This document shows, piece by piece, positions 1 through 677 of a stretch of 677 bases of DNA. The number at the start of each line of letters is the position of its first letter. Position 1 is the first letter of the stretch. The stretch lies in the NCBI RefSeq assembly GCF_003334335.1, contig NZ_QOWQ01000162.1, one strand, 5' to 3'. The DNA comes from Escherichia coli. GTDB taxonomy: Bacteria > Pseudomonadota > Gammaproteobacteria > Enterobacterales > Enterobacteriaceae. Both the position numbers and the translations under genes were made by a program. The notes under the pieces are model-generated. The model ran no database searches. It was given only the letters and a program-made list of their open reading frames with translations, and had not been told where the DNA came from.

Positions 1-677
1 GAACGGGTGAAACCACGCCAGTTCTGTTCGCTGCCGGTCAGCATCGCTGCCATATTCTGTGCAATACCGTCAAAGGTCTGCGTGGCCGCGTTTTTAACCT
101 GCGAAAAACTGTCCGTCGCACTTTCCGCCCACTCGCCCCAGCCGGACTTCATCCCGGCCATCCAGCTTCCACGAAGCTGCTCCTCCGCAGACCAGGTGTT
201 CTTCAGTGCAGATGTGGCCTTCGCCAGCGCAGCCGGATTATCACCGTACACGTCACGAAGGCGCTGCTCTTCCGACTCCCGCTGCGCCTGACGGTCGGTG
301 AGGCCGCGGGCTTTTGCGCTGATTGCCGCCTGCTTCGCGCTCTGCTGCTGTTCAAACCGCGCCGCCTGCTGTGCCAGCTCATTCAGCCGCTTCTGGTGTT
401 CAACCTTGTCGCCCAGCTCAGCCAGCTGGCGTTTGTACTCCAGCGTCTCTTTCTCATGGGCCAGCAGGGATTTTTCCTGCTCAGATAACTGCCGTTTCGT
501 GGCGGCCTCTTTCAGGACCACATACTGATTTTCCGCTTTCCATAAATCCCGGCGCTGCTGGCTGATTTTCTCATTCACACCGCTGTGTTTTTCCAGCGTC
601 CTGAGCTCGGTTTCAAGCGCCAGCATGGCTGCATGCGCCCGGTCTTCCTGGCGCTCACCGGCAGACACCTTCACACC
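1..677 (-). CDS. H: Phage tail tape measure protein, lambda gpH-like; internal fragment, partial at both ends (codons occupy 677..3, the two bases at 2..1 belong to the next codon)
   Basis: Seen in sequence: the minus-strand frame beginning at 677 is open across the whole window (225 codons, no stop). It translates to GVKVSAGERQEDRAHAAMLALETELRTLEKHSGVNEKISQQRRDLWKAENQYVVLKEAATKRQLSEQEKSLLAHEKETLEYKRQLAELGDKVEHQKRLNELAQQAARFEQQQSAKQAAISAKARGLTDRQAQRESEEQRLRDVYGDNPAALAKATSALKNTWSAEEQLRGSWMAGMKSGWGEWAESATDSFSQVKNAATQTFDGIAQNMAAMLTGSEQNWRGFTR. Composition is E/K/Q/R/L/A-rich, as expected for a coiled-coil ruler. Established knowledge (recalled, not searched): this matches the central region of lambda gpH, with blocks such as SQQRRDLWKAE, LRTLEKH, RGLTDRQA and TQTFDGIAQNMAAMLTGSEQNWR apparently conserved. 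The ORF track omits this frame, presumably because it has no stop in the window and so is not a closed ORF. Confidence 0.9.
3..110 (-). other. Conserved Trp/Gly-containing block of the tape measure protein, lying just N-terminal of where the hydrophobic segment would be expected (outside the window)
   Basis: Seen in sequence: the translation changes character from charged helix to WMAGMKSGWGEWAESATDSFSQVKNAATQTFDGIAQNMAAMLTGSEQNWRGFTR. Recalled knowledge: in lambda gpH the equivalent block is followed by a hydrophobic Gly/Ala/Ile/Val-rich stretch, which would lie beyond coordinate 1 here. Confidence 0.5.
228..623 (-). other. Predicted alpha-helical coiled-coil segment of the tape measure protein (approximately residues 19-150 of the translated fragment)
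   Basis: Seen in sequence: a long run dominated by Glu, Lys, Gln, Arg, Leu and Ala with few Pro or Gly (e.g. LALETELRTLEKH, LLAHEKETLEYKRQLAELGDKVEHQKRLNELAQQAARFEQQQSAKQAAISAKA). Established knowledge: tape measure proteins are largely extended helical rulers. Boundaries are approximate and no coiled-coil predictor was run. Confidence 0.6.

Follow-up and report, generated by a model that had tools for sequence, protein, structure and literature searches.

The window, i.e. the whole 677-base stretch of DNA that was analysed, is almost certainly an internal 675-nt piece of a homologue of the phage lambda tail tape measure gene H, read from the minus strand and belonging to a lambdoid siphophage or an Escherichia coli prophage. 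The fragment spans 225 in-frame codons that run from base 677 to base 3, and both ends of the gene lie beyond the window. It is of a known kind and belongs to an allele class common in E. coli prophages. The first-pass annotation of this DNA had warned that any annotation built on the listed open reading frames would be wrong in both strand and product. This appears to be correct, the three listed frames being antisense and the real gene being the minus-strand tape measure gene. The gene had also been called unreported, which holds for the mechanical list of reading frames alone; genes of this kind are annotated in thousands of genomes. PGAP routinely gives them the name 'phage tail tape measure protein'. 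The features are collected in Table 1.

Table 1. Positions of predicted features and profile matches in the 677-base window
Feature	Position	Strand	Basis or remark
Lambda-type tail tape measure gene (gene H homologue), internal fragment	1..677	-	Assigned by open frame and homology
NCBIfam TIGR01541 tape_meas_lam_C match	3..635	-	aa 15-225 against model positions 2-201 of 332; ends at the window edge
Pfam PF09718 Tape_meas_lam_C match	6..170	-	aa 170-224, model positions 1-55 of 76, i-Evalue 8.6e-14
Pfam PF24622 TMP_4 weak match	438..647	-	aa 11-80, i-Evalue 6.2e-4
ORF, 94 aa	7..291	+	Probable antisense by-product; frame shares its third codon position with H
ORF, 76 aa	298..528	+	Probable antisense by-product; plus frame 0
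ORF, 80 aa, TTG start	323..565	+	Probable antisense by-product

The open frame and what it can tell

Six-frame translation gives a minus-strand frame 0 that is stop-free across the window, and the remaining five frames contain 2, 6, 2, 7 and 14 stops. The uninterrupted 225-codon frame described in the first-pass annotation is confirmed by this translation, with 0 stops from base 677 to base 3. Its other starting point, that the supplied track holds three plus-strand reading frames only, could be reproduced as well: relisting at 60 aa gave exactly those three. At this default threshold the list leaves out reading frames that run past the ends of the source, and the 225-codon minus-strand frame is missing from it because the gene extends past both ends of the window.

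The G+C content of the window is 59.5%, and from mononucleotide composition the probability of 225 open codons is ~2.4e-4 per frame. Dinucleotide-preserving shuffles give a different picture, since a full-length open frame was found in one of the six frames in 373 of 5000 (7.5%). The TA dinucleotide is strongly depleted in the window (9 observed vs 26 expected from base composition), and because of this depletion long open frames are common even in the shuffled sequence. The openness of the minus-strand frame is therefore suggestive only.

This raises the question of whether the frame is open by chance of base composition, with the window non-coding or coding for something else. The shuffles speak for such a reading. 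Against it stand E-values of 1e-54 to 1e-147 in comparisons with tape measure proteins and profiles, as well as the third-position pattern of substitutions described below. In addition, a search of the window for structured RNA gave no Rfam match at E up to 1. A chance open frame is ruled out by the homology to tape measure proteins and profiles, and its probability is considered practically nil. Judged from the sequence, it is homology and not openness that makes the minus-strand coding assignment certain.

Homology to lambda gpH

The minus-strand product had been said to resemble lambda gpH, and the comparison bears this out. The 225-aa translation aligns ungapped with gpH residues 458-682, with 172 of the 225 residues identical (76%). 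At the DNA level the window aligns with the lambda record J02459 (gene H at 10542-13103), likewise ungapped and in frame with codons 458-682; nucleotide identity between the window and lambda gene H is 76-77.5% (76.2% against J02459). A phmmer search found chain H of PDB 8iyk ('Tape measure protein', 853 aa) at E = 3.2e-103, with query residues 2-225 placed on residues 459-682 of the chain. A second solved tape measure protein, PDB 9l9p_B, was matched at E = 4.5e-28.

The protein and HMM search of the translation that the first-pass annotation had proposed matched TIGR01541, PF09718 and several PHROGs in addition to gpH. The TIGR01541 model is an equivalog domain, and the translation scores 184.1 bits (E = 3.6e-54) against it, which is above the curated cut-off of 104.75. 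The PF09718 match is clipped by the window edge, ending at ...GSEQNWRGFTR. The segment that weakly matches PF24622 is probably helical, with many Ala, Glu, Gln, Leu, Lys and Arg residues. Five PHROGs (24, 6747, 1716, 339 and 2854), all named 'tail length tape measure protein', were matched at E-values from 2.8e-72 to 1.9e-6, those of PHROG 24 and 6747 being at 1e-70 to 1e-72.

The composition of the product (A+Q+E+L+K+R = 60%, with 1 Pro and 0 Cys) fits an extended, helix-rich ruler segment, as far as composition alone can indicate. With TIGR01541 matched above its cut-off, PF09718 matched as well, direct homology to gpH, which is the founding member of the family and has a solved structure, and a composition of the extended helix-rich type, the window product belongs to the lambda gpH family on all the sequence criteria that can be applied within the window.

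Which strand codes

Read in the minus-strand frame, substitutions fall mainly in third positions (34 of 46 in the comparison with an Stx2a phage, 99 of 161 in that with lambda). This bias was rejected as a test of strand, as it is insufficient against plus frame 0, with which the wobble position is shared. Plus frame 0, which carries the ORFs at 7-291 and 298-528, has an apparent dN/dS of 0.18-0.19; both this low value and the scarcity of stops in the frame arise because its third codon position is also that of the H frame. The strand was decided instead by a direct comparison of dN/dS and by a null in which the synonymous codons of the sense gene were shuffled.

At 0.09-0.13, dN/dS is lower in the minus-strand H frame than in the other five, and the substitutions among its codons show that it is under purifying selection. 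The sense frame gave a lower dN/dS than plus frame 0 in all three comparisons. This is also the case within the bases of ORF 7-291 taken separately, where the values are 0.125-0.169 for the sense codons vs 0.18-0.19 for the antisense codons.

The plus-strand reading frames

The three listed ORFs behave differently among the relatives. The GTG start of ORF 7-291 is conserved, and the frame is not interrupted by a stop, in each of the six relatives compared, of which lambda, at 76% nucleotide identity, is one; in lambda the stop codon at the end of this ORF is lost as well. The 76-aa product of ORF 298-528 contains 9 Cys and 17 Ser; this ORF is interrupted by a stop in copies that are 99.0% and 99.3% identical to the window and in lambda, where the start is lost too. 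ORF 323-565 has TGG in place of its start codon in three relatives (the Stx2a phage, PhiR12_2_star and lambda), and lambda adds an internal stop; the frame of this ORF has a dN/dS of 1.8-2.1. The products of the plus-strand ORFs consist to 49-53% of Cys, Ser, Ala and Pro. Neither they nor the product of a 59-aa minus-strand ORF at 203-382 have a PHROG match (best E = 0.5), and the six annotated records, that of lambda among them, carry no annotation on the strand antisense to H.

In the shuffle null the protein and its codon usage were kept, and 5000 trials were made. In 43% of these a plus-strand ORF reached 94 aa or more, and 13.5% had three or more ORFs of 60 aa or longer. The listed plus-strand ORFs were rejected as genes on the grounds that they have no PHROG match, that two of them are broken in close relatives and that their sizes are reproduced by the null. 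They are judged to be probable by-products of the coding strand.

The best case for a genuine small-protein gene antisense to H is ORF 7-291, whose start and openness persist in the six relatives and whose apparent dN/dS lies below 1. However, the shared wobble position would give a low dN/dS and few stops without any selection on this frame, the ratio is lower in the sense frame each time the two are compared, and ORFs as long and as numerous as those listed come up often in the shuffles. Moreover, ORF 298-528 is in the same frame and is broken in relatives that are 99% identical, and the products are rich in Cys, Ser, Ala and Pro, without a family match and unannotated in all records. A gene here, or at either of the other two ORFs, is very improbable. 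The claim that the minus-strand gene is the only real one in the window is well supported, with a very small probability left for ORF 7-291, which is open in all relatives.

It should be noted that the lesson of this window is one of annotation only. An ORF caller that demands a stop at both ends yields three spurious antisense ORFs and misses the real gene, and the lesson applies wherever the window is short and lies within a long gene. Codon-position bias and dN/dS resemble those of a real gene in an antisense frame with a shared wobble position, and they cannot alone decide the strand. Strand assignment from codon-position statistics could easily be misled by ORF 7-291.

Relatives, gene length and gene order

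The nearest DNA is that of a prophage of E. coli STEC17-183, which is 99.3% identical over the whole window (5 of 677 bases differ) and whose tape measure protein, WP_198800528.1, shares 223 of 225 residues with the window product. Protein H of Escherichia phage PhiR12_1 (XSB41634.1) shares 222 of 225, at 99.0% nucleotide identity. Both have an annotated tape measure gene of 2574 nt (857 aa), in which the window covers codons 462-686.

The gene order in the STEC17-183 prophage and in PhiR12_1 is V-G-T-H-M-L-K-I-J, as in lambda; V (major tail protein) and the chaperone genes G and T lie upstream of H, and M, L, K, I and J lie downstream. Phage 1720a-02, an Stx2a phage, PhiR12_2_star and Lambda_ev087 have the same tail gene order. 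A lambda-type tape measure gene is expected to follow the G/T chaperone genes, with their programmed frameshift, and to precede the tail tip genes M, L, K, I and J; its position between the two groups is seen in all annotated relatives. In PhiR12_1 (locus L001, 8272-10284) four extra genes are found between L and K, which are absent there in lambda and the other relatives. They comprise two minus-strand hypotheticals, one small plus-strand ORF and one gene noted as an antirepressor protein, and the insert looks like a moron inside the tail module.

A megablast search found 145 matching phage records; in those that carry annotation, the feature beneath the match is tape measure protein H. Among 5426 complete E. 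coli genomes, 3666 contain at least one match; a matching genome has a median of 2 such places, and none has more than 8. From a biological standpoint, the window adds an allele to a phage protein that is among the best studied, and matches to it are found in about two-thirds of complete E. coli genomes.

Matches to phages of unexpected hosts were also observed. The record of Xanthomonas phage vB_XooS_NR08 (OQ055246.1, 98.8 kb) has, at 27684-27892, a stretch of 209 nt that is 77% identical to positions 286-494 of the window (bases 184-392 of the gene-sense query), and the feature there is named tape-measure protein H. One Campylobacter phage record matches the window as well. Contamination or horizontal transfer may lie behind these matches, or the segment may simply be conserved.

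None of the collections searched (INPHARED phages, IMG/VR, the metagenomes and the 5426 complete E. coli genomes) contained a copy identical to the window. The closest copies have 5 mismatches in the complete E. coli genomes, 6 in the metagenomes and 15 in IMG/VR. The IMG/VR collection was scanned with a 97-nt exact pattern, which gave 6 contigs, and the metagenomes with a 135-nt exact pattern, which gave 25. Relatives differ in which of the window's variants they share, and this suggests that the window allele may be mosaic (recombinant).

A gene of about 2.5 kb had been predicted, and this is what the relatives have: 2574 nt in the copies that are 99.0-99.3% identical and 2562 nt in lambda gene H. 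Of the 10 near-identical metagenome copies whose contigs span the whole gene, 9 have 858 codons from stop to stop. The gene in relatives that are at least 98.9% identical is 2574 nt in length, or 858 codons in 9 of 10 complete copies. Complete IMG/VR copies have frames of 854-879 codons, and no in-frame stop was found within the H frame in ~35 relatives.

Two copies depart from this pattern. A metagenome copy with 7 mismatches to the window (locus L036, 1504-3915, in OBXJ01000045.1) has 804 codons and ends in TAA, where other copies have 858 codons and end in TGA; its H appears to have either a shortened tape measure or a different C terminus. In PhiR12_2_star (locus L007, 1618-4190) H is annotated as two overlapping coding sequences, 1618-4053 and 4005-4190, which implies that the tape measure gene of the 'star' derivative is frameshifted close to its 3′ end.

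Intact gene or prophage remnant

Lambdoid prophages in E. coli are often defective. The fragment might accordingly be looked at as the remnant of a tape measure gene in a cryptic prophage, truncated or inactivated outside the window and no longer building tails. Several observations are in keeping with a remnant, among them the number of copies per matching E. coli genome (median 2, up to 8), the existence of variant copies such as the 804-codon frame of L036 and the split H of PhiR12_2_star, and the fact that the nearest copy found differs at 5 of 677 bases, the flanks of the window having escaped the pattern scans. On the other side, the 225 codons contain no stop or frame disruption, the product differs by 2-3 aa from copies that include that of PhiR12_1, an inducible, plaque-forming phage, and a full-length frame is present in 9 of the 10 near-identical copies whose contigs include the two gene ends. 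A remnant is considered unlikely. From these near-identical copies we infer that the window's own copy of the gene is probably full length and intact.

Predicted function

Lambda gpH (853 aa) sets the length of the tail tube, and six copies of gpH* are found in the tube lumen (PMC12617516). At infection, gpH* makes at least a major part of the periplasmic channel, and AlphaFold3 hexamer models of gpH 1-319 and 320-691 fit the channel density (PMC12617516). Residues 691-712 of gpH form a hydrophobic stretch that is weakly predicted, and a glycine-rich cleavage region has been described (PMC12617516). By alignment with gpH, the window residues (gpH 458-682) would make up the distal third of mature gpH*, within the 320-691 segment, and they would stop just before the hydrophobic/glycine-rich cleavage region at about residue 691 in gpH.

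We infer the ruler, cleavage and channel functions of the window's allele from those of lambda gpH. The full protein, of ~857 aa, would be held by the G/GT chaperones and fill the lumen of the growing gpV tail tube, and its extended, largely helical length would fix the number of tube rings added. The C-terminal part would be cleaved after assembly to give gpH* and gpHC. At infection gpH* would be ejected before the DNA and make up some or all of a channel through the periplasm. The ruler and deletion work of Katsura and Hendrix reportedly puts lambda tail length at ~0.15 nm per gpH residue; at this value the 225 residues would account for ~34 nm of tail.

Comparison with known systems

The Stx-converting phages Stx2a_PV98-693, 1720a-02 and Stx2_12E129_PPompW resemble the window at 89-93% nucleotide identity and have the same tail gene order; Stx2a_PV98-693 shares 214 of 225 residues with the window product. 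Unlike the near relatives of the window, these phages have tape measure genes of varying length (2595 and 2646 nt), and in some Stx-converting phages the first 52 bases of the gene-sense query, at the right-hand end of the window, are left unaligned by megablast. The resemblance is closer to the genes of the STEC17-183 prophage (WP_198800528.1) and of PhiR12_1 (XSB41634.1), both 2574 nt in length and annotated as phage tail tape measure protein, from which the window differs by 5-7 single-base changes.

The window product differs from lambda gpH (853 aa; AAA96548.1; chain H of PDB 8iyk, 8iyl and 8k35) in being a different allele, with 53 of 225 residues changed, and the full-length homologue has 4 codons more than lambda H. 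Nevertheless, the two align ungapped over 225 residues in the same reading frame, and the near-identical relatives of the window share with lambda both the length class of the protein (857 vs 853 aa) and the neighbours V-G-T-H-M-L-K-I-J.
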